In this document: positions 35,001-64,000 of the stretch, piece after piece
Numbering within the stretch: position 1 is the first letter of the stretch
Layout of the letters: every line of letters begins with the position of its first letter
Origin: an uncultured archaeon
Lineage (GTDB): Archaea > Aenigmatarchaeota > Aenigmatarchaeia > QMZP01 > JACQNV01
Length of the DNA: 64,000 bases
Assembly (NCBI GenBank): GCA_964476045.1
Contig: CAYYYJ010000001.1
Span: 50,733 to 114,732 of the forward strand
Reading direction: 5' to 3'
The notes under the pieces: generated by a model
The model's database searches: none
What the model saw: only the letters and a program-made list of their open reading frames with translations
Told to the model about the DNA's origin: nothing
Program-made: the position numbers and the translations under genes

Positions 35001-36023
35001 ATGGCATATATCTATATTTTAGTATTCCTGGCTGCCTTTGTGACAGCCTTGGTTTTCTATAAATCAATTTCAAAATTCTTGTTCAGAGTGGGGATAAGAG
35101 CTATTGACCAGCAGAAATCGGATAAGCCGCTGATACCCACATCTGCAGGGATAATTGTTTTAATTGGCACTTTGGCTGGAATTTTTTTGTTTATAGGGGT
35201 GGACACGTTCATACTGCAAACAAGCGTTAATCTTTCCTATATTCTTGCTGCAGCCTTCTCTATTTTTATAATAACTTTCATCGGCTTCTTCGACGACATG
35301 AATGTTTCGCCTATTCTGAAAAAGGATAAGGGTTTGGCTGATTACAGGATAGGGCTAAAACAGTGGCAGAAACCGCTCTTAGTCCTGCCTGCTGCAATAC
35401 CTTTGATGGCTGTAAGGGCAGGGGTTACGGAGATGGCGTTGCCTATAATAGGCGCCGTGAATTTCGGCATACTTTATCCTCTTGTTCTCATACCACTCGC
35501 AGTTGTGTTTGTTACCAATGCAACAAACATGTTAGCTGGAATGAATGGGTTGGAAGCCGGCCTGGGCTTTGTAGCAACCTTGTCGATAGGGCTTTACGCA
35601 TTTTTTGTCGGAAGGCCTGAAGCTGCAATAATAGCCTTGTCAGCAGCTGGTGCCCTTGGCGCGATATTGCTTTTCAACTGGTATCCTGCAAAGATTTTGC
35701 CGGGAGACACATTAACATATTTAATAGGGGCTTCGATAATAACCTCTGTGGTTATAGGGAACATAGAAAAATTCGGGATAATAATCTTCTCTCCGTGGAT
35801 AATCGAATTCTTCTTGAAACTGAGATCTAAATTAAATGCCAGAAGTCTAGGGGAACTTCAGAAAGACGGGACCCTGAGATCATCTTATAAAAAGGTCTAC
35901 TCTCTAACTCATGTGTTCATGAGAACAGGAAAAGCAAAGGAACGGAAAATAGCAGTTTCATTGATTTTGTTGGAGATATTAATCTGTTTGGTTGGGTTCT
36001 TCGTTGTGATAAATTATCCTTGA
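35001..36023 (+). CDS. aglH: UDP-GlcNAc:dolichyl-phosphate GlcNAc-1-phosphotransferase (MraY/WecA family; AglH-like)
   Basis: Polytopic membrane protein with GFFDDMN (Asp-rich) and NATNMLAGMNGLEAGLG motifs of the polyprenyl-phosphate sugar-1-P transferase family. Confidence 0.7.
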   Translation: MAYIYILVFLAAFVTALVFYKSISKFLFRVGIRAIDQQKSDKPLIPTSAGIIVLIGTLAGIFLFIGVDTFILQTSVNLSYILAAAFSIFIITFIGFFDDMNVSPILKKDKGLADYRIGLKQWQKPLLVLPAAIPLMAVRAGVTEMALPIIGAVNFGILYPLVLIPLAVVFVTNATNMLAGMNGLEAGLGFVATLSIGLYAFFVGRPEAAIIALSAAGALGAILLFNWYPAKILPGDTLTYLIGASIITSVVIGNIEKFGIIIFSPWIIEFFLKLRSKLNARSLGELQKDGTLRSSYKKVYSLTHVFMRTGKAKERKIAVSLILLEILICLVGFFVVINYP

Positions 36024-36508
36024 TTAGGATTTCTCCTCTCAAGTTCAGTTATTATGGATTTCAAATCACCTGATATCAGAATTAAATTATCGCTTGGAAT
36101 AAGCCCTAAAGATTTGTACCAGGCCAAAGGAAACTTGTGGTTGTTATATGTCACACAATCATAACGAGTAACATTGTATTTATCCAATGCCTTTTTGAAT
36201 AAAGTTTTTGATAATTCAGTTCCAATACCTTTTTTTTGAAAACTAGGGTCCACAAATATTTCACCATCAACTAAATGATTTCCATCCCACCAAGGTTTTA
36301 TGCCAGCAACAAACCCACCAGCAATTTTGCCATTATACTCAGCAACAAAAAACAAGTCCGACTGTTTAGTCAGCCAATAGGCTAGTAATTTTTTTGCAGC
36401 TTCCTTGGTCCAAATCTCATCAATATCGACTTTTGTGTATGCTTTCACATAAATTTCTGAAAGTGTGTCGAGATCAGATTTTTTTGCCTTCCTAATATTT
36501 ATGAGCAT
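36014..36508 (-). CDS. GNAT family N-acetyltransferase
   Basis: Motif A FQKKGIGTEL. Confidence 0.75.
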   Translation of the reverse strand: MLINIRKAKKSDLDTLSEIYVKAYTKVDIDEIWTKEAAKKLLAYWLTKQSDLFFVAEYNGKIAGGFVAGIKPWWDGNHLVDGEIFVDPSFQKKGIGTELSKTLFKKALDKYNVTRYDCVTYNNHKFPLAWYKSLGLIPSDNLILISGDLKSIITELERRNPNQG

Positions 36509-36515
36509 ATGATCT

Positions 36516-36728
36516 TTATTCGCCCTTCAAATCCTTTGCCAGATAAAGCAAAACTAAGATAATAGTAAATACAAAAACGAGGAAGCCGCCATAGATTGCA
36601 ATGACAGACAGGCCGGGACTGAGAGCTGATATTCCCAATCCAGCAGCGAACATGAGTGCGCCTAATAAAATCGCCTTGAAACAAAACCCTTCATACTTCT
36701 TGAATTTGTTTTCATCTAGAGATGCCAT
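36516..36728 (-). CDS. small two-TM membrane protein
   Basis: 70 aa with two hydrophobic helices. Confidence 0.35.
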   Translation of the reverse strand: MASLDENKFKKYEGFCFKAILLGALMFAAGLGISALSPGLSVIAIYGGFLVFVFTIILVLLYLAKDLKGE

Positions 36729-36729
36729 A

Positions 36730-38790
36730 TTATGCTACCAAGTTGCTGACTTTAAAGATCTTGACCTCAGAGTTGTCAAAGACTAGCTTGAAGTTGTTTA
36801 AACCGACCCCATTGAAGAAGAACATCCTTGTAAATACGCTATCCCTTATTGACGGTTCCATGAATATTACGCTTGAAAAGTTTGGGTCAACCCATAGAAG
36901 TCCGTCAACAAATTCTGTATTAGTGGAATTTGCAGCGAAGTTAAGCAATTGGCCCTGGCCATTTTGGAACACTAGCATATTTTTAACTACAGCACTTCTC
37001 CCGTTCTGTGTTACAATGGGGATTAGACGTCCGTCTTTGTTTGAGATTACAATACTGCCGCCTGCATATACCAGTTCATTATTCTGCTGTTTTTCTAAAT
37101 TAAATGTTGCATAATTCTTGCCCTGGCCTGTGCCGAAGAAACTAAGCCAATAATATTTTCCGATGAGATCCGAGCTCGCGATTATATAAAAATCTGAGAC
37201 TGGCTTGCATGCATCTGGCGGAACAATATCCCCGAATGCTGCTCTGACTCGGCTGCATTGGGCAGGTGTGAGTTCCTTATATTTTTTCAGGATATCGAGG
37301 GCTTCAGTCTCGCTGGAAGTCACAAACATCTTGCCTGCATCCTTTATCCTTATGTTATGATTGTAGGGTATGCAATCGGCTGGAGAGCAATGCGCACCAT
37401 CCGCCTGAACTTTCAAACCAGTATATCCCGTGATGATGTGGCCTGGATCCCACCAGGTTGTTACTAAAGAATCTTTATCTGCATTTGTTTTTAGCCAGTC
37501 AAGTGCACTATACCAGTTCTGGCTTATCTGCAAACCGCTGTTTTGGTAGCCTGTGAGGATTGCATCTGAAACGAAAAACAATGAAATCAGGACAATCACA
37601 CCGTACAAGAAAACCTGGTAAGCAATCTGCTGCCTTTTTCTCATAAATGCAATGAGATTTGCCATCACGTAACCTGCTGCAACTGCCGTAGCGATCGAGA
37701 AGAGCAAAGAGAACCTAACGCCCCTTAATATCAAAATATAGCTAATTATCCACCAAGACAATAAGAAAACTTCCACAAAATTGGTTTTTATTTTCTTTTT
37801 TAACTTGTATAATATTATTGCAGGGACACCCAACAAAGAGAAAAGCATGGGGCCGATGCCAACTCTACCGGCTATCGATAAGAAACCTTCTTTTGTCAAA
37901 ATATTTACTGGCTGCAGTTCTGCAACAGAAACATTGACTATAAGCCCTTCGCCGAAAACAAACCCTAGGCTAACCAACATAGAAGCCAGCGGATTGCTCA
38001 ATCCGAAAACTTCCCCGAGGACGCTCGAAACAGCCAAGATTATAACAAGCGGTTTAACTATGTTTTTGAATTCTGGTTTTAGTTCTGCAAAACTCGGCAT
38101 TTTTCTGCTGTGGGCAGTATTTTCTATGAACCTGAAAATTAAAAAGCCTGGAATAAATAGAGTGAAAAGTATGAGCGGGAACCAGCCCCCATTCCAGCTA
38201 AACGCGAAGAAGAGGTTTGCGATTATAGAGAACGCATAATTAGGGACAGTGGGTTTTTTGAGAGTTCTTATTATCAGATAAATTGTTGTGAAAAACAGGA
38301 AGTTGACAGGGGCGTCGGAATCTGCGTAACCCCCCATCGAAACGCCTATGAGGGTTGGGGTCAGAACTGCGAACAGCGCCACCAGGAGACCGGCCCATTT
38401 ATTTTTGATGAGCCTGCCCAAGAGGAATGCAGGGATTATCGCTAGAATGACCATCAGTATCGGAGCGAATTTTACTACATCAGTTAAACTGTAATTCCCA
38501 AATAAGCCGGAGAGTTTGTAGAATACGGCCATTGTGTATGGCCATCCCTGACGAACATCATTTGGCCTTCCAGGAGGATAATAACTGAGTGTGTCCCATT
38601 TCAAAGGCTGGAAATCATTGTTTACAATCTCCTGTGTATGCCTAAAAAACCACCAAGGATCATAATCTAGAACAGTAGGCGAACTCAGCGTACCTGCCCG
38701 CACAAAATAAGCCAGATAGGCGATGAAGATTAGGCCTAAAATTACTGCGACCCTTTCGATCTGCTTTTTATCTTTACTCATCTTAAACAT
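36730..38790 (-). CDS. aglB: archaeal oligosaccharyltransferase AglB (STT3 family)
   Basis: 13 or more TM helices N-terminally, then catalytic WWDPGH (WWDYG-type motif) in TTWWDPGHIITGY; 686 aa. Confidence 0.85.
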   Translation of the reverse strand: MFKMSKDKKQIERVAVILGLIFIAYLAYFVRAGTLSSPTVLDYDPWWFFRHTQEIVNNDFQPLKWDTLSYYPPGRPNDVRQGWPYTMAVFYKLSGLFGNYSLTDVVKFAPILMVILAIIPAFLLGRLIKNKWAGLLVALFAVLTPTLIGVSMGGYADSDAPVNFLFFTTIYLIIRTLKKPTVPNYAFSIIANLFFAFSWNGGWFPLILFTLFIPGFLIFRFIENTAHSRKMPSFAELKPEFKNIVKPLVIILAVSSVLGEVFGLSNPLASMLVSLGFVFGEGLIVNVSVAELQPVNILTKEGFLSIAGRVGIGPMLFSLLGVPAIILYKLKKKIKTNFVEVFLLSWWIISYILILRGVRFSLLFSIATAVAAGYVMANLIAFMRKRQQIAYQVFLYGVIVLISLFFVSDAILTGYQNSGLQISQNWYSALDWLKTNADKDSLVTTWWDPGHIITGYTGLKVQADGAHCSPADCIPYNHNIRIKDAGKMFVTSSETEALDILKKYKELTPAQCSRVRAAFGDIVPPDACKPVSDFYIIASSDLIGKYYWLSFFGTGQGKNYATFNLEKQQNNELVYAGGSIVISNKDGRLIPIVTQNGRSAVVKNMLVFQNGQGQLLNFAANSTNTEFVDGLLWVDPNFSSVIFMEPSIRDSVFTRMFFFNGVGLNNFKLVFDNSEVKIFKVSNLVA

Positions 38791-38914
38791 AATAGTCTAA
38801 TAAGAACCGCGGTTTAATAAATACAGGTTTCAAGTAAATAAGAATTAGTGCCGTTTATAAAGATTCTCCTATATACCCTTTTCTTTTATAACCCAAAAAG
38901 AAGGAGTTACTAAC

Positions 38915-40492
38915 ATGAAACTGAAAATAGACAACTTTGTTATAGCTTTTTTGATAATTTTAATTTTAAATGTCTCTTTACATTTGTACGAATTGGGAAA
39001 ACAGATAACATGGGTCGACGAGCCAATATATGTTGTTGGCGGGGCAAAACTCCTTTTACAGAAGGGCGCGTACGATCCGCTTCTCTGGAATTTTGAGCAT
39101 CCGCCAGCAGGAAAATATCTTATAGGGTTGGCGACTTTGCTTTCTCCAGCTAATTTGAAACCCCTGATAGACTTATCTCCCAATAATTATCTGGGCCTTG
39201 GATATCCTGCAGTAGCGAAAGCCATAGACGAGTCTCTTCCATTTTCTCGTTTATCGCCGGCGCTTTTCGGAATCCTCTTATCAATAATTATCTGCCTATT
39301 TGCAAAAGACCTTTACGGAAAAAAGGCAGGATTGTTAGCTTTCCTTATTTCTACCATATCAATAGATTTGCTCACTTGGAGCAGGCTGGCTTACCTTGAC
39401 ATTTTCCTTGCATTTTTCTTTACAGTGTCATCCTATATTTTCTACAAATTAGTGGCTTTGAGCGATGACGCAACACAAAAAACAAAAAACAGGAAAATAG
39501 CCTATTCTATCTTATTAGGCGTTTTTGTTGGATTGACATTTACAGCAAAAAGCACGCAACCAATGCCCCTCATCGTATCGCTTTTTATCCTTTCACTTTT
39601 CTACAGGAAAAAGGTCTATACAAAAAATACCCTGCCGTTTATAGCGATCCCGCTAGCCATTTCGATTTTCTCGACTATAGGGAACCTCGAACTGTTTTCC
39701 AAAGCAACCTTTGATTATTTTGGCGCAACCAGCAGGCAACTTTCCTTTAACCCGGTGAATAACGCTGTTAGGGTATTTGAAAGGGTCCAACTGCCACTCC
39801 TGGGGCTTTTCTTTGTATCTGTTTACTTTTTGTGGAAAAAGAAAGCGCTTCTGAAAAATAAAATAATACTGATACCTATTTTAATTGCATTCCTTAGCTT
39901 CATATTTTCAGTGAACACCAGCCACAGATATTTCCTGCCAATGATACCATTTTTGATAATACTCAGTTCGTCTATCAACCTTGAAAACAAGAACCTGAAA
40001 TTTTTGTGTTTCATAGCCTTAATACTAGCAACGTATCCTGTAATTGAATCGTTCCCCGAATACACCCTATATACAAACACCTTAGATAAGGCAACAGGCA
40101 ACAACTACTTCTGGGAAGAAGCTGGATTTGCTGGCCTTGACGAAGCAGCGAAATATGTGTCATCGAATACATCACAAAACGGCATAATTTTCATTACACA
40201 GGATGCAATAAGGTACAGAGTGTTCAATAGACCGATTTTAGCATACGAAGGCGGCCAAACCTTGCTCTACTTGCCTGATGGGCAAGTGGGCCAAACAAGC
40301 AACATATTCTGCGATGGCCTTTCAAAATTCCGGGAAAACAATATAACAACATTAATAATACAAAATCCGATGATGCTAGACAAAAGCTATTGTGAAGGGA
40401 TACGACAATTATACAATACAGAAAAGCCAACACAAGTCATAACTAAAAACGGGATGGACGTGATAAAAATATTCTCAATAGAACGGAGTTGA
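38915..40492 (+). CDS. GT-C fold membrane glycosyltransferase (family 39/83-like, PMT/ArnT-type)
   Basis: Polytopic membrane protein with the loop-1 acidic motif VDEPIY near the N-terminus, as in PMT/ArnT-like enzymes. Confidence 0.55.
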   Translation: MKLKIDNFVIAFLIILILNVSLHLYELGKQITWVDEPIYVVGGAKLLLQKGAYDPLLWNFEHPPAGKYLIGLATLLSPANLKPLIDLSPNNYLGLGYPAVAKAIDESLPFSRLSPALFGILLSIIICLFAKDLYGKKAGLLAFLISTISIDLLTWSRLAYLDIFLAFFFTVSSYIFYKLVALSDDATQKTKNRKIAYSILLGVFVGLTFTAKSTQPMPLIVSLFILSLFYRKKVYTKNTLPFIAIPLAISIFSTIGNLELFSKATFDYFGATSRQLSFNPVNNAVRVFERVQLPLLGLFFVSVYFLWKKKALLKNKIILIPILIAFLSFIFSVNTSHRYFLPMIPFLIILSSSINLENKNLKFLCFIALILATYPVIESFPEYTLYTNTLDKATGNNYFWEEAGFAGLDEAAKYVSSNTSQNGIIFITQDAIRYRVFNRPILAYEGGQTLLYLPDGQVGQTSNIFCDGLSKFRENNITTLIIQNPMMLDKSYCEGIRQLYNTEKPTQVITKNGMDVIKIFSIERS

Positions 40493-40508
40493 GTTCTTTA
40501 AACAATTT

Positions 40509-41024: not shown

Positions 41025-41044
41025 AGGTCCAAAAGCATTTTCCT

Positions 41045-42823
41045 ATGATCAATGCGATAAAAAACGAATTAAAGCAAAAACAGTTTAGGGCATTCATAAT
41101 AATCCTGATTGCAGTAACAGCCTTATTCTGGGCAACAAGAACCCATGTGCTAAGCTATGATGAGTACAGGGACCTTTACCTGTCAAAAGCTTTGCTTAAT
41201 GGGGAATATAGCTACTATGGCGATGCATATTACAAACATCCTCCCCTATACATGATCCTGCTGTCTGTCTCGTCCAGAGTTTTCGGTTACGGCGAAGATG
41301 CAGGTTATGTTTTGTCAATAGTTTTCGGCATACTCACAGCTGTTTTAACATATCTTTTTGTCTCAAAATTCGTGGATAAAAAGCTTGCAATACCATCTTG
41401 CTTTATCCTTATACTCAACCCATGGTTTTCAAAATTTGCTAGAGACCTGAGATTTGAAATAGCAACAATGTTTTTCCTATTCCTGACAGTTTACTTTTTC
41501 TATAGCTATATAGAAAACAAAAGAAAAAGGTCGCTTGCCCTAACTGGAGTCTCTTTAGGGCTGGGTTTGCTTACCAAGACATTTGTGTTCCTGATAATCC
41601 CGTCTCTTGCGATATTTTTGCTGTGGCTGGTTTACAAGAAAAAAATGCCTTTCCCAGAAGCTGCTAAATCTTTCATTTCTATAATAATTGTAGCGGGACT
41701 GATCTACTCGCCTTGGCTGATCTATACCCAAATCAATGGGGGCCCTTCCCAGTTTATTGCCCAAAGCGAAGAGTTCACAGGGCAAGTGAGATGGAACCCC
41801 GATTACGTGTCGCCGCCAATTTACTTTTATTTGGCAGAGCTTCAAAATCTCCTTACAATACCGATCTTAATATTATCTGTAATAGGGCTTCTGCTTGTAA
41901 ATAAAAAGGGCCATATGTTCTATCTTATATCAGCTTGGATAATTTTCCACATAGCTTTCGTATCCATAATGGGCTACAAAGAAACCAGGTTCATAATGTA
42001 TCTGGTGCCCATATTTTCAATAGCAGCTGCTGTTGGAGCGAAAAAAATACTTGGAAAACTCAATTTGAATAAAACAGTTTTACTTTATCTGCTTGTTATA
42101 ATCCTAATGATTCCAGGCATAGCTTTGGCGGAAAACCCTGTATGGAAAGAATACCCAACGCCAAAAGACTGGGATTTGTGGGGCCATCTTAAACAAAATA
42201 TCGATAGGAATGAATATGTTTTAGCCGATGACTATGGGATGGTTGAACTCTATTCGAACCCATCTGATGTTGTAATCGGCGACTGGCAGGCAGATGCTGG
42301 AAGGTATCTAACATACGATTCAAAATACGTGCTGCTAGAACCTAAAGTGGCTTATGTAAATGATGTGGATAAACAGGCAATCTTTTCAAAAGTAAAAGAT
42401 TTCTATTACGGCGGGCCTGACAGGAAAATAAACCTAACACTTTACAAGGTGGACACGCAAAAACTGGCTTCAATGCTTTATGGGAACAGCTCAATACAAA
42501 TTAAAGGGAAGCTCACTAACACAATGAATGCCAATCCTATAAACAAGGGGAAAATCCTCGTAGCAACCACAGTTGGCCAGATTATAAACATCTTCTACAC
42601 AAAACCGAATGGAGAATTCGCATTGTATCTGCCAGCGGCAGGGCAGTATTTAGTTAACCCAAAGGCTTTCGGATACGAAGAGAAGACGCTGATTCTCCAG
42701 ACTGATGGAAGCCAGGCGCTAATCTGCGCAAATCCAAACAACTGCTTCCAGAAAAGCAGTGTGGACATCAGCCTCGAATTTAAAGGATTCTTTAACCATG
42801 GATACAAGGATGCGAGATTCTAG
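41045..42823 (+). CDS. GT-C fold membrane glycosyltransferase with C-terminal carboxypeptidase-regulatory-like beta domain
   Basis: N-terminal 10 or more TM helices (YYKHPPLYMILL loop); C-terminal KILVATTVGQIINIFYTKPNGEFALYLPAAGQYLV resembles CarboxypepD_reg-like domains. Confidence 0.5.
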   Translation: MINAIKNELKQKQFRAFIIILIAVTALFWATRTHVLSYDEYRDLYLSKALLNGEYSYYGDAYYKHPPLYMILLSVSSRVFGYGEDAGYVLSIVFGILTAVLTYLFVSKFVDKKLAIPSCFILILNPWFSKFARDLRFEIATMFFLFLTVYFFYSYIENKRKRSLALTGVSLGLGLLTKTFVFLIIPSLAIFLLWLVYKKKMPFPEAAKSFISIIIVAGLIYSPWLIYTQINGGPSQFIAQSEEFTGQVRWNPDYVSPPIYFYLAELQNLLTIPILILSVIGLLLVNKKGHMFYLISAWIIFHIAFVSIMGYKETRFIMYLVPIFSIAAAVGAKKILGKLNLNKTVLLYLLVIILMIPGIALAENPVWKEYPTPKDWDLWGHLKQNIDRNEYVLADDYGMVELYSNPSDVVIGDWQADAGRYLTYDSKYVLLEPKVAYVNDVDKQAIFSKVKDFYYGGPDRKINLTLYKVDTQKLASMLYGNSSIQIKGKLTNTMNANPINKGKILVATTVGQIINIFYTKPNGEFALYLPAAGQYLVNPKAFGYEEKTLILQTDGSQALICANPNNCFQKSSVDISLEFKGFFNHGYKDARF

Positions 42824-42824
42824 T

Positions 42825-44012: not shown

Positions 44013-44050
44013 GTTATTTATTTAAGGCATTCATATATTAGACTATTCCT

Positions 44051-45436
44051 ATGTCATTGAACAAACCTGATTATATTGAACAATCTAGAAGGATTTTCGA
44101 TTTCCTTATTTCAATTAAAAAAGACGAATTCTGGAAAGAGCTGGTGGATTTGGATAGCAATCAAAATTATGGCCAAACAATGATAGATGACCTCGGGGAT
44201 ACCATGCCTTTCATGGCTTTCTTCGGTAAAACATCAGGGAAAAAATATCTAGCTGAAGCTGACACAATATCAAAATCCTCTATATTAAAATTCCGGAAAA
44301 ATGGGCTGTTCATAACAACAAACAAAACAGCGCTGAAGTCGCTTTCGTTCTTTGACTCAAACAAAATGTCAGACCTTATACTCGGGATAAATTTGCTTTA
44401 CATGCTGACGAAAGACGAGTTCTATCTCAATGCTTCTAAAGCTTTCTTTGACTCCATGGGTAAGCGCATGATTTCTAAAAAAGGGTTTGTGAACTTCATG
44501 TACATAAACGGGATTAAATTAAAATTCACATCAGGCAGTTTCTCAGGCCTTTACATGGAGGAGCTTTGCAGCTTGTACGAATTCACAAAAGAGAAGAAGT
44601 ATCTGGAGCAGGCTGATAATATTGCAAAATATTGGATAAATTCAGATCACTTCAAAAAAAATAACTTATTCTCTTTTGGGCTGGACCATAATTTTGTAAC
44701 CGGCAAATTCATGAGAAAACTGTTTAAGAAAACAATAGGCTGCGATATAGACAGCGTGATGACAAGCAAAGCTAATACAAATCTTCTTTTCGGGTTATGC
44801 GAATTATATAAACTGACAAAAGATCTTGAAGTTAGAAAATCAATTTTACTATGGAAAACTGCTTTAGTAAAAAAACTCAGATCAGATAAAGGATATTTTT
44901 ACTCACTTCTTGCAGAAAAGGAGAAGAAATACATCTCGCTAGCATATGACCATGCTGTAATAGATGTTTTTCTGGAAATTTACAGAGTCACTGGAGATAA
45001 AGAGAGCCTAGAGCTAGCCAAATCTACAGCAGACAGCTGGATCTCATTACAGGGTAAATCTGGATTGGTTCCTGAGACAATTGAGGGGGAGCAAACCTCA
45101 TTTGTGAAAGAACACAAAGATCTAAGTCACAATGTTTCGCGATTGGACTCTCAGACAGATTTTTCTGTAGTCCTGATGAAGCTTTACGAATTAACTCAGG
45201 ACAAAAAATATATTGTTTCAGCTGACAAAATACTCCGCGGAATAATGGATTATCACAGATACAAAAAAGGGTTTGTAGATATCCTGGACCTGTCTACACT
45301 AAAGCCTCTATCAGGCATCATAGAAGCCAAGTTTTTATTTTTACTGACAAAAACTTTCCTTTTGAGAGCTTATATCTCGACTGGGGGAAAGGTTTATAAA
45401 ACCGATCTAGTAAGAAGTCTTGTGAGGGACAGGTGA
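44051..45436 (+). CDS. hypothetical protein in glycosylation island (possibly helical-repeat/toroid fold)
   Basis: 461-aa soluble ORF with repeated aromatic-rich helical segments; no catalytic motif recognised. Confidence 0.4.
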   Translation: MSLNKPDYIEQSRRIFDFLISIKKDEFWKELVDLDSNQNYGQTMIDDLGDTMPFMAFFGKTSGKKYLAEADTISKSSILKFRKNGLFITTNKTALKSLSFFDSNKMSDLILGINLLYMLTKDEFYLNASKAFFDSMGKRMISKKGFVNFMYINGIKLKFTSGSFSGLYMEELCSLYEFTKEKKYLEQADNIAKYWINSDHFKKNNLFSFGLDHNFVTGKFMRKLFKKTIGCDIDSVMTSKANTNLLFGLCELYKLTKDLEVRKSILLWKTALVKKLRSDKGYFYSLLAEKEKKYISLAYDHAVIDVFLEIYRVTGDKESLELAKSTADSWISLQGKSGLVPETIEGEQTSFVKEHKDLSHNVSRLDSQTDFSVVLMKLYELTQDKKYIVSADKILRGIMDYHRYKKGFVDILDLSTLKPLSGIIEAKFLFLLTKTFLLRAYISTGGKVYKTDLVRSLVRDR

Positions 45437-45445
45437 GCGGATTAC

Positions 45446-54761: not shown

Positions 54762-55883
54762 CTATCCTTTACGTTTTAAAACTTCTTTGTAAAGATCGCT
54801 ATACATCTTTGCTGCAGATTGCCAGCTAAAGCCTTTTGCAATTTCTGTGCTTTTCTTCCCAAAGGATTCTGAAGCCCGCGGATTATCCAGAAGCCAGATT
54901 ATTTTCTCAGCAAGTTTTTTTGGATCCCCTGTTTCAACCAAAAAGCCGTTCACACCCTCTTTTACAGCATCCCTGTGGCCGTCAATGTTTGTTGCGACTA
55001 CAGGCGCTCCGCATGCCATTGCCTCGAGTAAAGTCTTAGGAAGCCCTTCAGCAAAAGATGGCTGGACATAAACAGAGCATCTTCTATAATAGTCCCTGAT
55101 CTCTTTATGGGCCACATGTCTCAATGAAACATTTTTCCCCAGCCCGAGTTCCCTAACCTCTTTTTGGATATTCTGATATTCCTCGTCGCCTTCCTTTCCG
55201 CCTAGAATTACAAGTCCGGCATCAGGATACTTCTTCACAATATCTTTCATGGCCCTCACCAAAAAAACAAGGCCTTTTTTCTTTACGAACCTGCCGGCTG
55301 TGAGGATAAGAACCGCTTTAGGCCTTTTTTCTGGAGGGTTAAAATTGCTCATATCAACCCCGCTAGGTATGTAACAGACTTTGCCTTTCAGACCAAAGCT
55401 TTTTTCTATTTCTCCTACACCGCTTGATGAGACAGAGACAGCGAAATCAGAATTTTTAGCTATCCTCTTTGAAGCCCTGAAAAATTCCCAGTAAGACTTT
55501 AAGCATTTGAATACATTTTGCCTGTAGACCCTGTAAGCCAGAACAGAGTCGTGAATAGTAAAAATAACTGGTTTCTGCAGCCTCCGTGAAAGCGGCAGTA
55601 TTGGATTGTGTATATGTATTATGTCAGGTTTTTCCTTCCGTATTATCTCAGGCAGGTTCTCCAGGATCCTTTTTCCGGTTTTCAACAGGAACGGCCTCTC
55701 CGCTTTAAATTTGTATATCCTAAAACCGTTTGCCGGAAGCTCTTCGTCTTTGTTCCCGCCGCAGATCACAGCTATTTCATTCCCCAGACTTTTTTGCGCA
55801 ACTGAGAGATTGTAAATGTGCGGTTCTAATCCGCCGCCGATGTCTTTTTCCGGAAACGATGGGCATATCCTAAGTATTTTCAT
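54762..55883 (-). CDS. family 4 glycosyltransferase (GT-B)
   Basis: FAEGLPKTLLEAMACGAPVVATNIDG (E-x7-E). Confidence 0.8.
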   Translation of the reverse strand: MKILRICPSFPEKDIGGGLEPHIYNLSVAQKSLGNEIAVICGGNKDEELPANGFRIYKFKAERPFLLKTGKRILENLPEIIRKEKPDIIHIHNPILPLSRRLQKPVIFTIHDSVLAYRVYRQNVFKCLKSYWEFFRASKRIAKNSDFAVSVSSSGVGEIEKSFGLKGKVCYIPSGVDMSNFNPPEKRPKAVLILTAGRFVKKKGLVFLVRAMKDIVKKYPDAGLVILGGKEGDEEYQNIQKEVRELGLGKNVSLRHVAHKEIRDYYRRCSVYVQPSFAEGLPKTLLEAMACGAPVVATNIDGHRDAVKEGVNGFLVETGDPKKLAEKIIWLLDNPRASESFGKKSTEIAKGFSWQSAAKMYSDLYKEVLKRKG

Positions 55884-56844: not shown

Positions 56845-57336
56845 TTAAGGAGCAAAATCTATTTTCCCCTCTGATGCTTTTTTCAGCCTCTCAACGGTTT
56901 TCTGGGGCGCCTCTTTTATAGCTCTTGTAGAACTCGTGGTTTCGCTAAATCCGGAATCCCCTGCCCATCTAGGGACAATATGTATGTGCAGATGTTCAAC
57001 TGTCGCGCCAGATGAAGGCCCCATATTAAACCCTACATTGAATGAGTGGACATCATAAACTTTTTCTGTCAGATCCAAAAACTTTTTCATCAGCGAGAAA
57101 AAATCTTTCAGCTCCTCTTTGGTAAGATCCCTTATATCCTTTACATGCCTTTTGGGCATCACCATAAGATGGCCATAATTGTATGGGAACTCATTCGCAA
57201 TGACAAAAGATGATTCAGTTGAGTGTATCAAAAAGCCTCCCCTGTCTTCTCTGCAAAAAATGCATGCGCCGAGCTTATCCCCTGGTTTTTTGCGGTAAGC
57301 TTCCCTGAATTCTGTATGGATATAGGATTTGAACAT
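56845..57336 (-). CDS. HIT-family nucleotide hydrolase/transferase
   Basis: Histidine triad HLHIHIVPR; CIFC zinc-like N-terminal motif. Confidence 0.7.
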   Translation of the reverse strand: MFKSYIHTEFREAYRKKPGDKLGACIFCREDRGGFLIHSTESSFVIANEFPYNYGHLMVMPKRHVKDIRDLTKEELKDFFSLMKKFLDLTEKVYDVHSFNVGFNMGPSSGATVEHLHIHIVPRWAGDSGFSETTSSTRAIKEAPQKTVERLKKASEGKIDFAP

Positions 57337-57471: not shown

Positions 57472-58539
57472 ATGAGAGGGTTAATACTCGCCGGAGGTCA
57501 CGGAACCAGGTTAAGGCCGCTCACTTTTACAATAGCCAAGCAGCTGCTCCCAATAGCAAACAAACCGATTTTATTTCATGTAATAGAAGACCTCAAAAAC
57601 GCTGGGATAACAGAAATAGGGATAATTGTTGGCCATACAGAAGAGCGTGTAAAAAGCATAAAAGATGCTGTTGGCGACGGCTCCGGTTTCGGTGTAAAAA
57701 TTACATACATCTTCCAGGATGCGCCGAGAGGTTTGGCTCATGCTGTTCTAATAGCAAAAGATTTTCTAGGTTCAGGCCCTTTTGTTGTATATCTGGGAGA
57801 CAATCTGATCAGAGGCGGAATTAAAAAATATGCGGATGAGTTCAAGGCAGGCGATTATGACCTTGGTGAGTTTTTCGTCCACTATAAGAACCCGGAAAAG
57901 TATGGGGTCCCTGTCTTTGATGGAGAGAAGCTTGTCGGTGTAATAGAAAAGCCAAAAACAAAACCAGACACAGACCTTGTGCAAAGCGGGGTCTATTTTT
58001 TCCGGCCTAACGTATTTGATGTCATTAAAACGCTCAAGCCTTCCCAGAGAAATGAACTGGAGATAACAGACGCGATGGATAAGATGATCAAAGGGGGCTA
58101 TAAAGTAAAGTACTGGGTAGCTGAAAACAAGTGGTGGAAAGATACAGGGACTCCCGAAGACATTCTCGAAGCCAATCAGCTGGCACTTGGAGACATTAAA
58201 AAATCGATAACAGGTTATGTAGAAAATACAGTAAAAATAGAAGGTGAGGTCATAGTTTCTGAGGGCACAAAAATACAGGGAAACACGAAAATTATAGGCC
58301 CTGCAATTATAGGCAAAAATTGCATTATCTCAAATTCCGTGATAGGTCCTTATGTCAGCATAGGCGACAACTGTGAGGTCGAAAATTCAAAATTAGAATC
58401 GTCGATATTCATGAAAAATTCTAAAATAAACTGCAGTGAAAAAATAAGCCAAAGTATAATAGGTGAAAACGCGAGAGTTTCCGATAAAAAAGGATCCTCG
58501 AGCCTAATCATCGGTGATGGATGCCAGGTTTCAATATGA
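57472..58539 (+). CDS. sugar-1-phosphate nucleotidyltransferase (glucose-1-phosphate thymidylyltransferase-like, long form with C-terminal left-handed beta-helix)
   Basis: MRGLILAGGHGTRLRPLT...KQLLPIANKPIL signature; C-terminal hexapeptide repeats. Confidence 0.75.
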   Translation: MRGLILAGGHGTRLRPLTFTIAKQLLPIANKPILFHVIEDLKNAGITEIGIIVGHTEERVKSIKDAVGDGSGFGVKITYIFQDAPRGLAHAVLIAKDFLGSGPFVVYLGDNLIRGGIKKYADEFKAGDYDLGEFFVHYKNPEKYGVPVFDGEKLVGVIEKPKTKPDTDLVQSGVYFFRPNVFDVIKTLKPSQRNELEITDAMDKMIKGGYKVKYWVAENKWWKDTGTPEDILEANQLALGDIKKSITGYVENTVKIEGEVIVSEGTKIQGNTKIIGPAIIGKNCIISNSVIGPYVSIGDNCEVENSKLESSIFMKNSKINCSEKISQSIIGENARVSDKKGSSSLIIGDGCQVSI

Positions 58540-59379
58540 CCTGGCAAGAAGCCTTATCCCTTTTTCTAACCCAATTTTCGGGGACCAGCCAAGAACTCTT
58601 TTAGCTAAGCTGTTGTCCCCGCAGGAAAACTTCCTTTTCTCATTGTATTCAGTAAACTCTAGGGCCGCTTTTTTCTTCAAAGTGTTTTCCAATTCCTTTA
58701 CAACATCAAGAGTGGTCAACGCCTTCCCGCTGCAGAGGTTGATTATGCCAGTAACATCTTTTGTGATGGAAAGAAATATGCCTTCAATTATATCATCAAC
58801 ATAAGTCCAGTCCCTTTTTTGCTTTCCGCCGCCCCAGATGCTTAGTGGTCTGCCGTTCTTCAGAGAATCAACAAACTTCGATATCATTGCCCCTCTTGCA
58901 TCTATTTTCTGCCCGGGCCCGTATACATTGAATAACCTGTTTACGACAACAGAAAATTTTTTTGAGTAGCTGAAGCAAAGTATTTCGCCTATTAGCTTGC
59001 TTGCCGAATAAGGCGAGTTTGTAAAATCCGCTGGGTAATCTTCAGTTGCCTTATTCTCTTCGTTTGAATTTTTATAAACTTCAGAAGTGCTTACAAAATG
59101 AAATCTTTTTACCTTGTTCTGCTCAGCTGCCTTAAGCAGATTCAGGGTGCCTAGAATATTAGTCTCAAAGATCTCAGATTCGCCGCCTTTAGAAACAGAA
59201 GCCAGGTGGCTTATCGCATCGCAGCCTTTTGCCTGCTCTAGGCAGCCAGAATACTTCCTGATGTCGCCTTTGAACAAAACAGCTTGGTGCCCTTCTGACT
59301 CCAGCCTTTTTGCCAGATGTGATCCTATGAAGCCTCTAGCCCCTGTTACCAAAACTTTCATACTAAATCTCAAAAGCAA
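58531..59379 (-). CDS. NAD-dependent epimerase/dehydratase family protein (dTDP-4-dehydrorhamnose reductase-like)
   Basis: MKVLVTGARGFIGSHL and YSASKLIGE (YxxxK); 282 aa. Confidence 0.7.
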   Translation of the reverse strand: MLLRFSMKVLVTGARGFIGSHLAKRLESEGHQAVLFKGDIRKYSGCLEQAKGCDAISHLASVSKGGESEIFETNILGTLNLLKAAEQNKVKRFHFVSTSEVYKNSNEENKATEDYPADFTNSPYSASKLIGEILCFSYSKKFSVVVNRLFNVYGPGQKIDARGAMISKFVDSLKNGRPLSIWGGGKQKRDWTYVDDIIEGIFLSITKDVTGIINLCSGKALTTLDVVKELENTLKKKAALEFTEYNEKRKFSCGDNSLAKRVLGWSPKIGLEKGIRLLARSY

Positions 59380-59441
59380 AACAACTTTATAAAACTATCC
59401 CAATCTGGCTTATATCCACAAACAATAATATTATTCTTGTT

Positions 59442-60386
59442 ATGCCCCCCACGGTAATAGCCCTAATACCTGTGTATAACAGCGGGAAATTCATAGAGAA
59501 AAGCCTCAATTTTGTTCTGGGACAATACTATCCTGTGAAAGAAGTGTACGTGATAGACGATGGCGGTAAAGACGACACTGTCCAAATCTCTGAGAAAATA
59601 GCGAAATCCTCCAAGAAAATAAAAGTTCATGTCCTAAAAAAACCGCATACAGGGATGAGGGGAAACATGCTCAACGATGTGATCAAAAAAATAAGGTGCG
59701 ACTTGATATGGATTGTTGAAGCAGATGCCTATCACGACAAAGATTTCCTAAAAAACATGGTTAAAGATTTTGAAGACCCTCAAGTCGGTGGAGTGATAGG
59801 AAGGGAATACCCTATGCACGTAAACACCTTTCTTGACAAGTGCCGTGTGATAGAGTTTGAATACAAGTACAAGAATTACAATCCTTATACAGCATGGGTA
59901 ATCAGGAAAAAGGCCTTGGAAAAAGCTGGCGGATTTTCTGAAAATACGTGGCTTTTTGATGACGTTCTTTTAGGCAATGATCTGAAAAAGGCTGGCTACA
60001 AAATAAAATTCCAGGCAAAGAGCAAAAGACGCCATTTCCAGAAAACCTCGATTAAGGCACTTTTGAGGCAAAGGCGCTTCTGGGGTTATGCCTACTACCT
60101 GACCCTGAAAAACAGGAAGTACATCCCAAAGTACATACCTATATGGACAGCCGGCCTTGTTGCGCTTCCAGTAGCAGCTTTTTATTATCCAACACTAACG
60201 CTGTCAGCTATTGCAGGCCTTTTAGCCCTGCTATTCCTAAATGCCGGGATAAAACTAAAAGGCCACACAAAAAATCCGGCTGCGGTAATCTCCATTGTCC
60301 TGATAAGACTTTTCAGGCAGATAATAACAACGATTTATTTCTGGCTCGGTTTATTATTAAGGGCAGCTGGAAAAAACATCCTATGA
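59442..60386 (+). CDS. family 2 glycosyltransferase with C-terminal TM helices
   Basis: IALIPVYNSGKFI, VIDDGGKDDT and VEADAY (DxD-like) motifs. Confidence 0.75.
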   Translation: MPPTVIALIPVYNSGKFIEKSLNFVLGQYYPVKEVYVIDDGGKDDTVQISEKIAKSSKKIKVHVLKKPHTGMRGNMLNDVIKKIRCDLIWIVEADAYHDKDFLKNMVKDFEDPQVGGVIGREYPMHVNTFLDKCRVIEFEYKYKNYNPYTAWVIRKKALEKAGGFSENTWLFDDVLLGNDLKKAGYKIKFQAKSKRRHFQKTSIKALLRQRRFWGYAYYLTLKNRKYIPKYIPIWTAGLVALPVAAFYYPTLTLSAIAGLLALLFLNAGIKLKGHTKNPAAVISIVLIRLFRQIITTIYFWLGLLLRAAGKNIL

Positions 60387-61090
60387 ATTATAAACAATTC
60401 TATAACGACCTTTTTGAAAGAAGAGGGGCTTATTTCCACAAATGGGTTACCCTGAAAAACAGGACTTATCTGGAGCATGCAAGGCGAATAAACAATTTTA
60501 TTGACAAGACAGGAATTGTGTTGGATTTAGGCTGCGGCGATTGTTACATAACAAACATACTCAGCAAAAAATCAGACGTTTTAGGGACTGACATTTCCCA
60601 GAAAGCTTTGAAACTGGGAAAATCGATCTACCCTAACCTGAAGCTTCTCACAGGCTCTGCAATTGCTATTCCGTTAAAAGGCAATTCAGTTGATTTTGTC
60701 ACGACTAGCAAAATAATAGAGCACCTGACTCCAGAAGATGCAGAGACCATGTTAAAGGAAATAAGACGTGTGCTTAAGCCAGGCGGAAAGCTTGTCCTAA
60801 GCACTTCAAACCCTTTGAACATCTGGGAAAAGATCCTGCACATTTATCTGAGATTCAAATCAGAGGAAGAGGAGCACCTTAAAGAATATCTCACAGAAGA
60901 TCTCAGGCAAACAGTTAACAGGCACCTTTCCGTTGAAAAAATAATTGAAAAGGCAGACCCGCCTTTTTTCAAGCACTTTCCTGGCCTCAGCGCTTTCGTG
61001 ATGTTTTCGCAAAAACTCTTCTTGAAAATTTTCCCAGTATTTACCAAATATTTTAGGAATCAGTTATATGTGGTTGCAGTGAAGAAATAA
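60383..61090 (+). CDS. class I SAM-dependent methyltransferase
   Basis: VLDLGCGDCYITN motif I, LKPGGKLVLST; start set at MNYKQF (ATGA overlap with the GT2 stop) rather than the longer overlapping ORF. Confidence 0.7.
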   Translation: MNYKQFYNDLFERRGAYFHKWVTLKNRTYLEHARRINNFIDKTGIVLDLGCGDCYITNILSKKSDVLGTDISQKALKLGKSIYPNLKLLTGSAIAIPLKGNSVDFVTTSKIIEHLTPEDAETMLKEIRRVLKPGGKLVLSTSNPLNIWEKILHIYLRFKSEEEEHLKEYLTEDLRQTVNRHLSVEKIIEKADPPFFKHFPGLSAFVMFSQKLFLKIFPVFTKYFRNQLYVVAVKK

Positions 61091-61098
61091 TGCGGAGA

Positions 61099-62316: not shown

Positions 62317-62388
62317 AAGTATGTATATCCTGACTTAGTCAATAATATAGTTACGAAAAACAACTACATATAAGCTTTTGCCGCACAT

Positions 62389-63585
62389 ATGAAAATTCTC
62401 CATTTAGGGAAGTATTATTACCCGCATTCTGGTGGTGTAGAAACGTACACACAAACAATAGCAGAATCGCTTGTTAAGAAGTCTCATGATGTTGAAGTTA
62501 TAGTTAACAATAAAGAGAGGGAATCAAAGATAGACTATGTAAACAAGGTAAAGGTAATAAGACTGTCAAGGCTAACAGATCTTTTCCATGCGCCGTTTTC
62601 AAAGTTCCCTTTCGCCTACATTAAAAAAAGCGGGTTCGATATTATACATCTCCATGTTCCAAATCCCTGGCTCGAATTAAATCTTTTAGCTTATTTTTTA
62701 TTTTTTGGGAAGAAGGAGAGGTTTGTAGTGACGTACCATGCTGACGTTCCCCATTACACAGCCTTTCACAGAATAATGGATTACTTCAGGACGTGTTTTA
62801 CATATCCCCTCTTAAAGATTTATGCAGATTCAATAATACCAACAAGCGAAAACTATATAGATGGATCGTTCTTTCTTAGAAAGCTCAGAAATAAAATAAC
62901 AGTAGCCCCCATAGGGATAGATACTAAATCGTATTTTGTTGACAAAAAAAACCTTGAACAAACCAAACGAAAATATAAAATAGGCAGCGGGAAAGAAAAA
63001 ATTATATTATTCTATGGGAGATTGGTCAAGTATAAAGGAGTTGAATACCTTCTGGAGGCATTCTCAATGTTAAATAAAAAAAACGTAAGGTTATTTATTG
63101 TTGGCGATGGCGACCTCTCCGGGAAATTACGGGCCAAAGCAAAAAATCTGGGGTTAAGCAACATCGTATTTACAGGCCACGTTAACAATGCAACAATGAA
63201 TTCGTTCAGGTTTCTGGCTGATATTTTCGTGCTACCCTCAATAAATAGGGGTGAAGCCTTCGGGATCTCTATAATCGAGGCAATGTATTTCAAAAAACCA
63301 GTGGTTACCACGAACATAAAAAACAGCGGAGTCGCATATGTAAATGACGGGTTAAAAATCAATTCTCTAAATTCTCAGAGCGTTGTTGGGTCTAAAACAG
63401 GTTTAATTGTTGAACCAAAGAATTCTAAAGAGCTTTCTGATGCAATTGACTATCTGCTATCAAATACCAAGATCGCAGAAAAACTTGGGGAAAATGGATA
63501 TAATAGGGCAATTCAAAATTTCACAGAAGAGAAATTCACAGACAGGATAAATAAAATTTACGAAAGCCTGAAAAAGCAAATATGA
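62389..63585 (+). CDS. family 4 glycosyltransferase (GT-B)
   Basis: GEAFGISIIEAMYFKKPVVTTN (E-x7-E). Confidence 0.8.
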   Translation: MKILHLGKYYYPHSGGVETYTQTIAESLVKKSHDVEVIVNNKERESKIDYVNKVKVIRLSRLTDLFHAPFSKFPFAYIKKSGFDIIHLHVPNPWLELNLLAYFLFFGKKERFVVTYHADVPHYTAFHRIMDYFRTCFTYPLLKIYADSIIPTSENYIDGSFFLRKLRNKITVAPIGIDTKSYFVDKKNLEQTKRKYKIGSGKEKIILFYGRLVKYKGVEYLLEAFSMLNKKNVRLFIVGDGDLSGKLRAKAKNLGLSNIVFTGHVNNATMNSFRFLADIFVLPSINRGEAFGISIIEAMYFKKPVVTTNIKNSGVAYVNDGLKINSLNSQSVVGSKTGLIVEPKNSKELSDAIDYLLSNTKIAEKLGENGYNRAIQNFTEEKFTDRINKIYESLKKQI

Positions 63586-64000
63586 AAATACTAATCACAT
63601 CAGATCTGGGATATCCGTACATAGGTGGCGGCGAGAGCTATGTTATTAGTCTCTCGAAAGCACTAATAGGCCTAGGCCATGAAGTCCACTGGGCAACAAG
63701 CAGGATAGGCGAAACAGCTAGAACAGAGGACTACGAAGGCATAAAAATGCACAGAATGAGGATACTCTTTCCAAAAAGCTATCTTTTCCCTGGAAGGCAT
63801 ACGTTCCCTCTAACTTCTTTTATACCGCTGGTGAGGCTTTCAAAAGAATTTGATGTCCTCCAGTTCACAACATTTTTAGCCGGTGTGATTGGCGCAAAAG
63901 TCGGCAAAGTTGCGAAAAAACCGGCGATCCTGTTTTGCCATGAATTTTTTGGCAGACTCTGGAAAACAATAGGGCAAAGCAAACTCGAAAGGAATGTCTT
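63582..64000 (+). CDS. family 4 glycosyltransferase, N-terminal part (runs off window end)
   Basis: Starts MKILITSDLGYPYIGGGESYV in ATGA overlap with the previous stop; GT4 N-domain pattern; absent from ORF track because it is open at the window end. Confidence 0.55.
   Translation, partial: MKILITSDLGYPYIGGGESYVISLSKALIGLGHEVHWATSRIGETARTEDYEGIKMHRMRILFPKSYLFPGRHTFPLTSFIPLVRLSKEFDVLQFTTFLAGVIGAKVGKVAKKPAILFCHEFFGRLWKTIGQSKLERNV

Follow-up and report, generated by a model that had tools for sequence, protein, structure and literature searches.

Gene content of the island

We analysed a stretch of 64,000 nucleotides of contig CAYYYJ010000001.1 from an uncultured archaeon (GenBank assembly GCA_964476045.1), referred to below as the window. 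A first-pass annotation, made from the sequence without database searches, had described positions 35001-64000 as a surface-glycan island resembling the agl clusters of archaea. Pfam and NCBIfam profile scans of the window proteins yielded a gene map that confirms the island: 25 genes lie back to back on both strands, with a coding share of 97% and intergenic gaps of -14 to 221 bp, and almost all of them carry glycan-type domains. The likeness to agl clusters also holds, as AglH and AglB show the expected domains, motifs and fold and their neighbours belong to glycan-type families. These families include glycosyltransferases (GT) of families GT4 and GT2 and of the GT-C fold, the latter related to protein O-mannosyltransferases (PMT), as well as enzymes dependent on S-adenosylmethionine (SAM) and a short-chain dehydrogenase/reductase (SDR). 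The genes are given below with coordinates, strand, product and profile scores.

35001-36023, + strand: AglH, polyprenyl-phosphate GlcNAc-1-phosphate transferase family (GPT/Alg7/WecA-like); PF00953 105.8 bits
36014-36508, - strand: GNAT acetyltransferase; PF00583 54.6 bits
36730-38790, - strand: AglB/STT3 oligosaccharyltransferase with WWDPG; PF02516 85.7 bits
38915-40492, + strand: GT-C, PMT/PMT_2 (ArnT/AglS-like); PF02366 49.1 bits, PF13231 38.2 bits
40509-41024, + strand: small class-I SAM methyltransferase between two GT-C genes; PF13489 64.4 bits
41045-42823, + strand: GT-C (PMT_2) with C-terminal beta-sandwich domain; PF13231 71.6 bits
42825-44012, - strand: GT4 (GT-B) no. 1; PF00534 132.8 bits, PF13439 46.2 bits
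44051-45436, + strand: (alpha/alpha)6-barrel protein, GH127/GH88/AGE-like; PF07944 47 bits, PF07470 35.1 bits
45446-46747, + strand: nitroreductase domain with weak methyltransferase-like domain; PF00881 80.1 bits, Methyltransf_31 23 bits (below the cut-off of 27)
46740-47732, + strand: Gfo/Idh/MocA sugar oxidoreductase; PF01408 77.9 bits, PF22725 64.3 bits
47729-49201, - strand: Wzx/AglR-type lipid-linked oligosaccharide flippase, 11 hydrophobic segments; PF01943 56.3 bits
49252-50796, - strand: B12-binding radical SAM enzyme; PF02310 65.9 bits, PF04055 79.3 bits
50952-52346, - strand: GT-C (PMT_2), third copy; PF13231 62.6 bits
52350-52910, - strand: small class-I SAM methyltransferase; PF13489 90.6 bits
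52923-54749, - strand: AsnB-type glutamine amidotransferase; PF00733 287 bits, TIGR01536 520 bits (cut-off 267)
54762-55883, - strand: GT4 no. 2; PF00534 141.7 bits
55870-56844, - strand: RmlB, dTDP-glucose 4,6-dehydratase; TIGR01181 416.7 bits (cut-off 365.1)
56845-57336, - strand: HIT-family nucleotide-sugar hydrolase/phosphorylase-like protein; PF01230 65.5 bits, weak GDPGP1_N match in precomputed annotation
57472-58539, + strand: RmlA long form, glucose-1-phosphate thymidylyltransferase; TIGR01208 405.6 bits (cut-off 320.25)
58531-59379, - strand: SDR, NDP-sugar epimerase or reductase; PF01370 166 bits, no NCBIfam equivalog above cut-off
59442-60386, + strand: membrane-anchored GT2, 2 C-terminal hydrophobic segments; PF00535 84.5 bits
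60380-61090, + strand: class-I SAM methyltransferase; PF08241 70.9 bits
61099-62316, - strand: GT4 no. 3; PF00534 88 bits, PF13439 73 bits
62389-63585, + strand: GT4 no. 4; PF00534 133.8 bits
63582-64000, + strand: GT4 no. 5, running off the window end, 390 aa on contig L001; PF13439 46.1 bits

The island had been thought to continue past the window end, and it does. A contig that is identical to the window across 11,612 overlapping bases (L001) runs about 4.4 kb further, to the equivalent of window position 68,382, which brings the island to at least 33.4 kb and about 30 genes. The extension completes the fifth GT4 and adds two methyltransferases, a fourth PMT_2 GT-C of 529 aa and the start of a GT2 resembling dolichyl-phosphate-mannose synthase (DPMS). 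Two independent assemblies end at the identical base inside this last gene (L001 position 15994 and L002 position 10089, both equivalent to window position 68382), perhaps owing to a repeat or to a junction differing between strains immediately downstream.

Several of the numbers first given for the island had to be revised. Eight GT4 enzymes had been counted; five lie inside 35001-64000, the last one cut by the window end, and six in the whole window. One GT2 rather than two is found inside (59442-60386), the second being located upstream at 22394-23560 and a third just beyond the window end. The five methyltransferases resolve into one B12-binding radical SAM enzyme and four class-I domains, of which one is weak and part of a fusion with a nitroreductase domain. 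The estimate of three or four PMT/ArnT-like GT-C enzymes was accurate, with three in the window (38915-40492, 41045-42823 and 50952-52346) and the fourth past its end. The flippase, the RfbA-like and RfbB dTDP-sugar genes and the epimerase/reductase were recovered as a Wzx-type flippase, the long form of RmlA, RmlB and a further SDR, and the Gfo/Idh/MocA oxidoreductase was found at 46740-47732. The profile scans added genes that had not been listed, encoding the AsnB-like amidotransferase, the B12-radical-SAM enzyme, the (alpha/alpha)6 GH127/GH88-like protein, the nitroreductase-methyltransferase fusion and the HIT and GNAT proteins. For the methyltransferase at 60380-61090, the public gene call is 235 aa long and starts after the GT2 gene; translation probably begins with the Met at 60380 rather than at 60143.

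Proposed enzymes of initiation and transfer: AglH and AglB

AglH is proposed to be the initiating enzyme. Its PF00953 score far exceeds the cut-off of 27 bits, it has about nine hydrophobic segments, and its nearest solved relative is human DPAGT1 (E 1.5e-13). Against the archaeal MraY equivalog it scores 62.6 bits, below the cut-off of 450. Two motifs had been assigned to it. One of them, NATNMLAGMNGLEAG, is located at aa 173-187 and aligns with NAINILAGINGLEAG of DPAGT1. The other had been read as DDxxN; the actual acidic motif at aa 98-101 is DDMN, that is DDxN, one residue short, and HMMER leaves it unaligned with the DD of DPAGT1. AglH is 82% identical to its counterpart at locus L087 of a sister organism, which is described further below.

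The STT3 domain of AglB (PF02516, cut-off 24.5 bits) spans aa 36-411. Alignment with 28 homologues revealed that residues D42, D44, D157, D159, S288-VAE291, R359 and W446-W447-D448-P449-G450-H451 are invariant; D42xD44 and D157xD159 are the acidic motifs of external loops 1 and 2. The AlphaFold2 model (pLDDT 86.3, pTM 0.84) predicts a multi-span N-terminal part followed by a C-terminal globular part, as in the oligosaccharyltransferase fold. Foldseek matched this model to PglB (6gxc, E 1e-20, template-modelling (TM) score 0.69), to AfAglB (7e9s, TM 0.62) and to yeast and human STT3 (TM 0.58-0.65). D484-A-G-K487 corresponds to DMGR in most relatives, or DMGK, and Thr rather than Met or Ile stands four positions after the Lys; the DK/MI motif appears non-canonical. 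Compared with TIGR04154, the family of archaeosortase-A-associated STT3 proteins, AglB scores 89.6 against a cut-off of 450 and falls outside this subfamily.

The WWDPG sequence had been presented as a variant of the catalytic WWDYG motif in this AglB. It is indeed present (aa 446-450, window 37441-37455) and aligns with WWDYG of human STT3B. It is not special to this gene, being clade-wide and at a variable position of the motif. Pro occupies the X of WWDXG in 120 of the 120 best AglB homologues, down to 44% identity, and those homologues that bear a taxon name come almost exclusively from Candidatus Aenigmatarchaeota. Related loci were collected by a species-level scan (one genome per species) that gave 124 relatives, and all counts over loci rest on the best 80 of them listed; even the nearest species representative among these 80 has an AglB that is only 54% identical. 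WWDPGH occurs in 79 of the 81 AglB open reading frames (ORFs) of these 80 loci, a count that is partly circular because the peptide was one of the two search patterns, and SVAELQ in 76 of the 81. Searching 185,579 species genomes with TWWDPGHI and a second, looser AglB pattern matched 130 stretches, and nearly all named genomes among the matches listed are Candidatus Aenigmatarchaeota, a DPANN phylum. The description of the organism as a small-genome archaeon thus stands at the level of the phylum. The fourth position of WWDXG also varies in Euryarchaeota, for instance as WWDNG in Methanococcus (PMC11407970, PMC5131992). The string WWDPG itself was absent from the searchable glycobiology literature save for one unrelated paper, paywalled surveys of AglB motifs lying outside this search. 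We read WWDPG as a clade signature at a tolerant position rather than as pointing to altered chemistry, and WWDPGH looks like a clade marker for AglB of Aenigmatarchaeota.

The GNAT gene between AglH and AglB differs from its neighbours in GC content at third codon positions (GC3), with 0.29 against about 0.43. It has no counterpart at L087, where a 67-aa ORF takes its place. The gene is probably a recent insertion.

GT-C enzymes and their putative lipid-linked sugar donors

All four GT-C proteins score above threshold, three with PF13231 (71.6, 62.6 and 65.5 bits) and one with PF02366 (49.1 bits). Their hydrophobic segments number 8-9, and in every protein a DE dipeptide follows 7-13 residues behind the first segment (aa 35, 39, 29 and 43). 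The enzymes at 38915-40492 and 50952-52346 have 8 segments each, with the dipeptide at aa 35 and aa 29, respectively; in the enzyme at 41045-42823 it is at aa 39. The first of these genes is 69% identical and syntenic at L087, where the whole PMT-methyltransferase-PMT arrangement recurs. Similar arrangements are found at L005 and L003.

A sequence search of the 41045-42823 enzyme against the PDB returned nothing meaningful. Its AlphaFold2 model (pLDDT 72) has ArnT as best fold match (5f15/5ezm, TM 0.56-0.62), with Pmt4 and Pmt1/Pmt2 being weaker. The first-pass annotation had given one GT-C a carboxypeptidase-regulatory-like domain. At profile level this assignment fails, CarboxypepD_reg reaching 21.4 bits, below the cut-off of 32.3. 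It holds at fold level, because the predicted all-beta C-terminal domain matches domain II of duck carboxypeptidase D (1qmu) and CnaB-type domains. No MIR domain was detected in the four GT-C proteins (E limits of 0.01 for the three window proteins and 0.0001 for the fourth), and they are therefore not PMTs proper.

The fourth GT-C adjoins the DPMS-like GT2 past the window end. The best solved match of this partial protein is the Dol-P-mannose synthase of Pyrococcus (5mlz, E 1e-18), and it also matches ArnC and sll0501, which we take to be GtrB. A GT2 beside a PMT or PMT_2 gene is found in relatives L003 and L005 too, at the level of Pfam families. For the membrane GT2 at 59442-60386, the best solved relative is 6yv7 (E 2e-8), presumably a membrane GT2 of Pyrobaculum. 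The GT-C enzymes likely follow a two-step logic in which a GT2 would load polyprenyl phosphate with a sugar, the sugar would be flipped and a GT-C would transfer it outside the cell, by analogy with the ArnC/ArnT and GtrB/GtrC systems and with the dolichyl phosphate (Dol-P)-sugar scheme of AglD, AglR and AglS in Haloferax (PMC3871713). Candidate acceptors are the N-glycan, Ser/Thr residues and lipids. The repeated linkage of ArnT-like GT-C genes to AglB points to assembly or completion of much of the glycan on the outside of the cell, with Dol-P-sugars as donors.

Sugar-nucleotide and modifying enzymes

RmlA and RmlB both exceed the cut-offs of their NCBIfam equivalogs. AsnB exceeds that of the asparagine-synthase equivalog TIGR01536; its predicted role is the amidation of a sugar acid. 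The (alpha/alpha)6 protein has no hydrophobic segment, which indicates that it is cytoplasmic, and possibly carries out sugar isomerisation or epimerisation. It is 70% identical at locus L091 of the sister organism, and the adjoining nitroreductase fusion is 79% identical there. These two genes (44051-46747) have no obvious glycan role and are absent from 80 other AglB loci.

The B12-radical-SAM enzyme combines N-terminal B12-binding and radical SAM domains, and its CxxxCxxC motif reads CPYHCTFC (aa 219-226). It is the best-conserved protein of the island, with 91% identity to the sister. None of the NCBIfam equivalogs was reached, the best being BchE (178.8 against 481 bits) and HpnJ (169.1 against 578). 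A GT-C gene lies within 2 kb of 13 of the 19 radical SAM ORFs in the 80 loci, compared with 128 of 572 background ORFs (p = 3.6e-5). A strict trio of radical SAM, GT-C and methyltransferase genes was also considered and rejected, as a methyltransferase lies within 2 kb of only 3 of the 19 radical SAM ORFs. Homologues at 31-38% identity occur in glycan clusters of a metagenome-assembled genome, of Patescibacteria and of a KSB1 bacterium (L094, L095 and L096), in two of these three beside PMT_2 and Methyltransf_23 genes. These contexts speak for a role connected with glycans.

The enzyme is a probable C-methylase or related radical modifier of a sugar or of the lipid carrier. The recurrent link between B12-radical-SAM and GT-C genes constitutes a modest lead. 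A more specific proposal, which we consider rather unlikely, is that the module containing the radical SAM gene produces, on a polyprenyl-phosphate carrier, a sugar that has been methylated or modified in some other way by radical chemistry, and that this sugar is attached to surface glycans outside the cell. If true, there would be a cobalamin-dependent step in prokaryotic surface glycosylation, and the surface coat of genome-reduced cells of DPANN archaea and of the candidate phyla radiation would depend on cobamides from hosts or from the community.

Conservation of the island in relatives

The first-pass annotation had staked its reading on syntenic coherence, and gene content and order are indeed kept in a sister organism. 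Its AglB is 79% identical, and the window between 35 and 61 kb is matched gene for gene and in the same order on two contigs, with 61-91% amino acid identity. NAC, AglH, AglB, PMT, methyltransferase and PMT_2 genes lie on one contig (L087). L091 contains, in window order, GT4, the (alpha/alpha)6 protein, the nitroreductase fusion, Gfo, Wzx, radical SAM, PMT_2 and methyltransferase genes, followed by AsnB, GT4, RmlB, HIT, RmlA, SDR, GT2 and methyltransferase genes. The ends of L087 and L091 do not overlap. The GT4 gene that abuts PMT_2 in the window is trailed in the sister by five or six genes without Pfam match (L091 17838-21545/L090); none of these has a homologue in the window, and one encodes a protein of 1034 aa that may be a surface protein.

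More distant relatives (54-55%) also have AglB beside GT4, several PMT_2, methyltransferase and GT2 genes, and one of them has a B12-radical-SAM gene as well. We determined how frequently each family occurs around AglB in the 39 Aenigmatarchaeota loci with full 10-kb flanks, the GT-C proteins being found by iterated HMM search. The number of loci was as follows.

GT4: 34 of 39
PMT-like GT-C other than AglB: 32 of 39
GT2: 23 of 39
AglH: 20 of 39
Methyltransferase: 18 of 39
SDR: 16 of 39
B12-radical-SAM: 13 of 39

Rare or absent in these loci are the less classical genes, encoding the (alpha/alpha)6 protein, the nitroreductase fusion, HIT, GNAT, Gfo and AsnB. GC3 of the genes from Gfo to AsnB (46.7-54.7 kb) is 0.33-0.35, compared with about 0.43 elsewhere. 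A recent horizontal transfer of this low-GC block between these two lineages was considered and dropped, since its identity to the sister lies in the same range as that of the core, 61-91% throughout; the GNAT gene is the sole one with the look of a recent insertion.

Proposed pathway and alternatives

Taken together, these data make it likely that the island is an agl-type lipid-linked protein-glycosylation cluster of an archaeon of the Aenigmatarchaeota (DPANN). In the pathway that we propose, RmlA, RmlB, the second SDR, the Gfo-type oxidoreductase and the AsnB-type amidotransferase would make activated modified sugars in the cytoplasm, and the HIT protein may join them. AglH would load N-acetylhexosamine-1-phosphate onto dolichyl phosphate. 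The five GT4 enzymes and the membrane GT2 would then lengthen the lipid-linked oligosaccharide on the cytoplasmic face, with class-I methyltransferases decorating it, before the Wzx/AglR-like protein flips it outward. AglB would finally transfer the oligosaccharide to Asn in the sequons of secreted or surface proteins. In parallel, the DPMS/ArnC/GtrB-like GT2 past the window end would load single sugars onto dolichyl phosphate. These Dol-P-sugars could be used outside the cell by the four ArnT/PMT_2-like GT-C enzymes, which would either finish the N-glycan, like AglS of Haloferax, or glycosylate other acceptors. The B12-radical-SAM enzyme, tightly linked to the GT-C genes, would probably modify (methylate) one such sugar or carrier. 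The analysis itself establishes the domain identities, motifs, folds, synteny and the extension past the window; we infer the substrates, the order of the steps, the acceptors and the service of all genes to one glycan.

Several observations weigh against assigning the whole island to such a pathway. No target protein such as an S-layer protein, pilin or archaellin is encoded within it. The dTDP-sugar set has neither a cupin-type RmlC among the 30 island genes nor a bona fide RmlD in the island, the SDR at 58531-59379 scoring 35.5 against 224 for rmlD; both could be encoded elsewhere in the genome. AsnB could just make asparagine. The nitroreductase fusion, the (alpha/alpha)6 protein, HIT, GNAT and the B12-radical-SAM enzyme are non-classical glycan enzymes. 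In the sister, one contig carries the AglB core and another the sugar module, and the genes that lie at the junction are unrelated; the block of lower GC3 may indicate a mosaic of modules rather than one pathway.

The unrelated genes at the sister junction make a modular, mosaic island a live alternative, which we hold to be possible though doubtful. A conserved N-glycosylation core formed by AglH, AglB, two GT-C and a methyltransferase (35.0-42.8 kb) would then be merely adjacent to a separate Wzx-dependent module (42.8 to at least 68.4 kb) for a different surface glycoconjugate such as an O-linked glycan, a lipoglycan or a capsule-like oligosaccharide, making at least two systems. Such a division agrees with the distribution of the parts over different contigs in the sister, where the junction GT4 is flanked by the five or six Pfam-less genes including that for the 1034-aa protein, and with the fall of GC3 in the Gfo-to-AsnB block. 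It also agrees with the rarity or absence of the (alpha/alpha)6 protein, the nitroreductase fusion, Gfo, AsnB and HIT near AglB in the 80 other loci, and Haloferax too has a second, variable glycosylation cluster (PMC3871713, PMC11407970). However, profile scans found no Wzy polymerase, chain-length regulator or second initiating transferase in the 33 kb; AglH is the sole priming enzyme seen and AglB the sole obvious end-point. GT4, SDR and RmlA-like genes are moreover common near AglB across the phylum, and both parts are similarly identical to the sister (61-91%), with no sign of separate recent transfer.

The GT-C enzymes, the B12-radical-SAM enzyme and the small methyltransferases might alternatively act on lipids, by ArnT-like glycosylation of membrane lipids or by radical SAM methylation of archaeal lipids or dolichol, and not on protein glycans; part of the island would then serve lipid modification. 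We judge this improbable. A lipid or carrier role stays in contention for the radical SAM enzyme because lipid-modifying B12-radical-SAM enzymes exist in archaea (PMC11214058), and those modifying archaeal tetraether lipids (PMC11214058; bioRxiv 10.1101/2025.10.20.683597) count in favour of it. So do the top NCBIfam hits of this enzyme, among them HpnJ and a B12-radical-SAM family of lipid biosynthesis, none of which reaches its cut-off, and the best structural match of the 41045-42823 enzyme, ArnT being a lipid A glycosyltransferase. On the other hand, the radical SAM gene and its distant homologues are found among GT4, GT2, Wzx, NeuB and PMT_2 genes, also in bacteria without archaeal lipids, and the GT-C genes adjoin AglB in nearly all close relatives. 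DPANN archaea are generally reported to lack lipid biosynthesis, which we also count against action on lipids. Finally, the clustering could be fortuitous, this genome simply being rich in glycosyltransferase and methyltransferase genes; the further GT2, GT4 and methyltransferase among housekeeping genes at 21.7-25.9 kb could be cited for this. The idea hardly deserves credence, given 25 consecutive genes without a housekeeping gene next to 35 kb made up mostly of them, an order kept in the sister at 61-91% identity and the recurrence of the same families around AglB across the phylum.

The analysis provides a checked gene map of an N-glycosylation island of Aenigmatarchaeota, which should help annotation and the planning of glycoproteomics on enrichments. 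The WWDPGH marker, the link between ArnT-like GT-C genes and AglB and the presence of B12-radical-SAM enzymes in glycan clusters are of specialist interest and do not overturn current understanding. The suggestion that so large an island reflects an episymbiotic lifestyle is speculation.

Surroundings of the island in the window

The first 35 kb of the window contain archaeal housekeeping genes, including those for aIF2-alpha, PCNA, the primase large subunit, the tRNA-intron endonuclease, the nascent polypeptide-associated complex (NAC) and the alpha and beta subunits of phenylalanyl-tRNA synthetase (PheRS). In a small satellite glycan cluster at 21680-25927, a methyltransferase gene (21680-22270) is followed by that of a membrane-spanning GT2 (22394-23560) and, after an NTP_transf_2 nucleotidyltransferase gene and a small gene, by that of a GT4 (24776-25927). 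The polyprenyl synthase encoded at 12535-13623 may supply the lipid carrier.

Three pairs of adjacent genes resemble MNT/HEPN toxin-antitoxin systems (23658-24766, 27348-28333 and 28335-29146) and are scattered among PheRS and glycan genes. Each pair is composed of an NTP_transf_2/Polbeta nucleotidyltransferase and a small partner, which can be recognised as a HepT-like RNase in the third pair only. The SAM synthetase (30856-32091, - strand) is of the bacterial/eukaryotic MetK type (PF00438, PF02772, PF02773) and not of the usual archaeal type, which suggests horizontal acquisition. Its gene is only some 3 kb away from the island with its many SAM-dependent enzymes. Two ORFs have no Pfam match, one of 338 aa (19019-20035, - strand) and one of 284 aa (33477-34331, + strand). 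The latter immediately precedes the NAC and AglH genes and is missing from the sister locus. ARAGORN found no tRNA gene, a possible mark of an integration site, in the 64-kb window.

Comparison with known systems

AglB resembles the solved PglB (3rce/6gxc) and AfAglB-L (3waj/7e9s) in its overall fold and in the acidic motifs of the first two external loops. SVAE occupies the place of TIXE/SVSE, the motif with the Glu of loop 5, and the conserved Arg and WWDXG are common to all. Sequence identity to the solved proteins is only 15-17%. With 686 aa, AglB is short compared with the archaeal 'long' AglB, and unlike its solved relatives it has Pro as the fourth motif residue, followed by an invariant His (WWDPGH).

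The GT-C genes recall the ArnC/ArnT and GtrB/GtrC systems in the position of a GT2 next to a PMT_2 GT-C, in the ArnT-like model and in the DE dipeptide after the first segment. In contrast to these systems, the acceptor is unlikely to be lipid A, no small flippase of GtrA or ArnE/F type was seen in the island, and an oligosaccharyltransferase is accompanied by four paralogous GT-C enzymes, one of which has an additional beta-sandwich. With the eukaryotic and actinobacterial PMTs (GT39) they share Pfam PMT/PMT_2 scores above cut-off and a DE dipeptide in the first loop, whereas they have no MIR domain, are much shorter (464-592 aa) and match the PMT fold more weakly than that of ArnT.

Among the closest known systems is the agl cluster of Haloferax volcanii (HVO_1517-HVO_1531, aglJ ... 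aglB ... aglM), in which genes for AglB and glycosyltransferases lie together with those for AglP (a methyltransferase), AglR (flippase-like), AglS (a Dol-P-Man transferase) and a nucleotidyltransferase (PMC3871713). AglB with glycosyltransferases, an AglP-like methyltransferase, an AglR-like protein of the Wzx family, an AglF-like nucleotidyltransferase and an AglS-type outer-face Dol-P-sugar transferase are common to both clusters. The logic is also the same, a lipid-linked oligosaccharide being combined with a separately delivered Dol-P-sugar (PMC3871713). With no less than 33 kb and about 30 genes, the island has roughly double the length of the Haloferax cluster. It opens with the GPT-type AglH where Haloferax has the GT2 AglJ, and it encodes four PMT_2-type GT-C enzymes compared with one AglS. 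Unlike the Haloferax cluster, it contains a B12-radical-SAM enzyme, an AsnB-type amidotransferase and dTDP-sugar genes, and its AglB has WWDPG instead of WWDYG. With these differences, the island is a large yet ordinary example of an already known type of archaeal glycosylation cluster.

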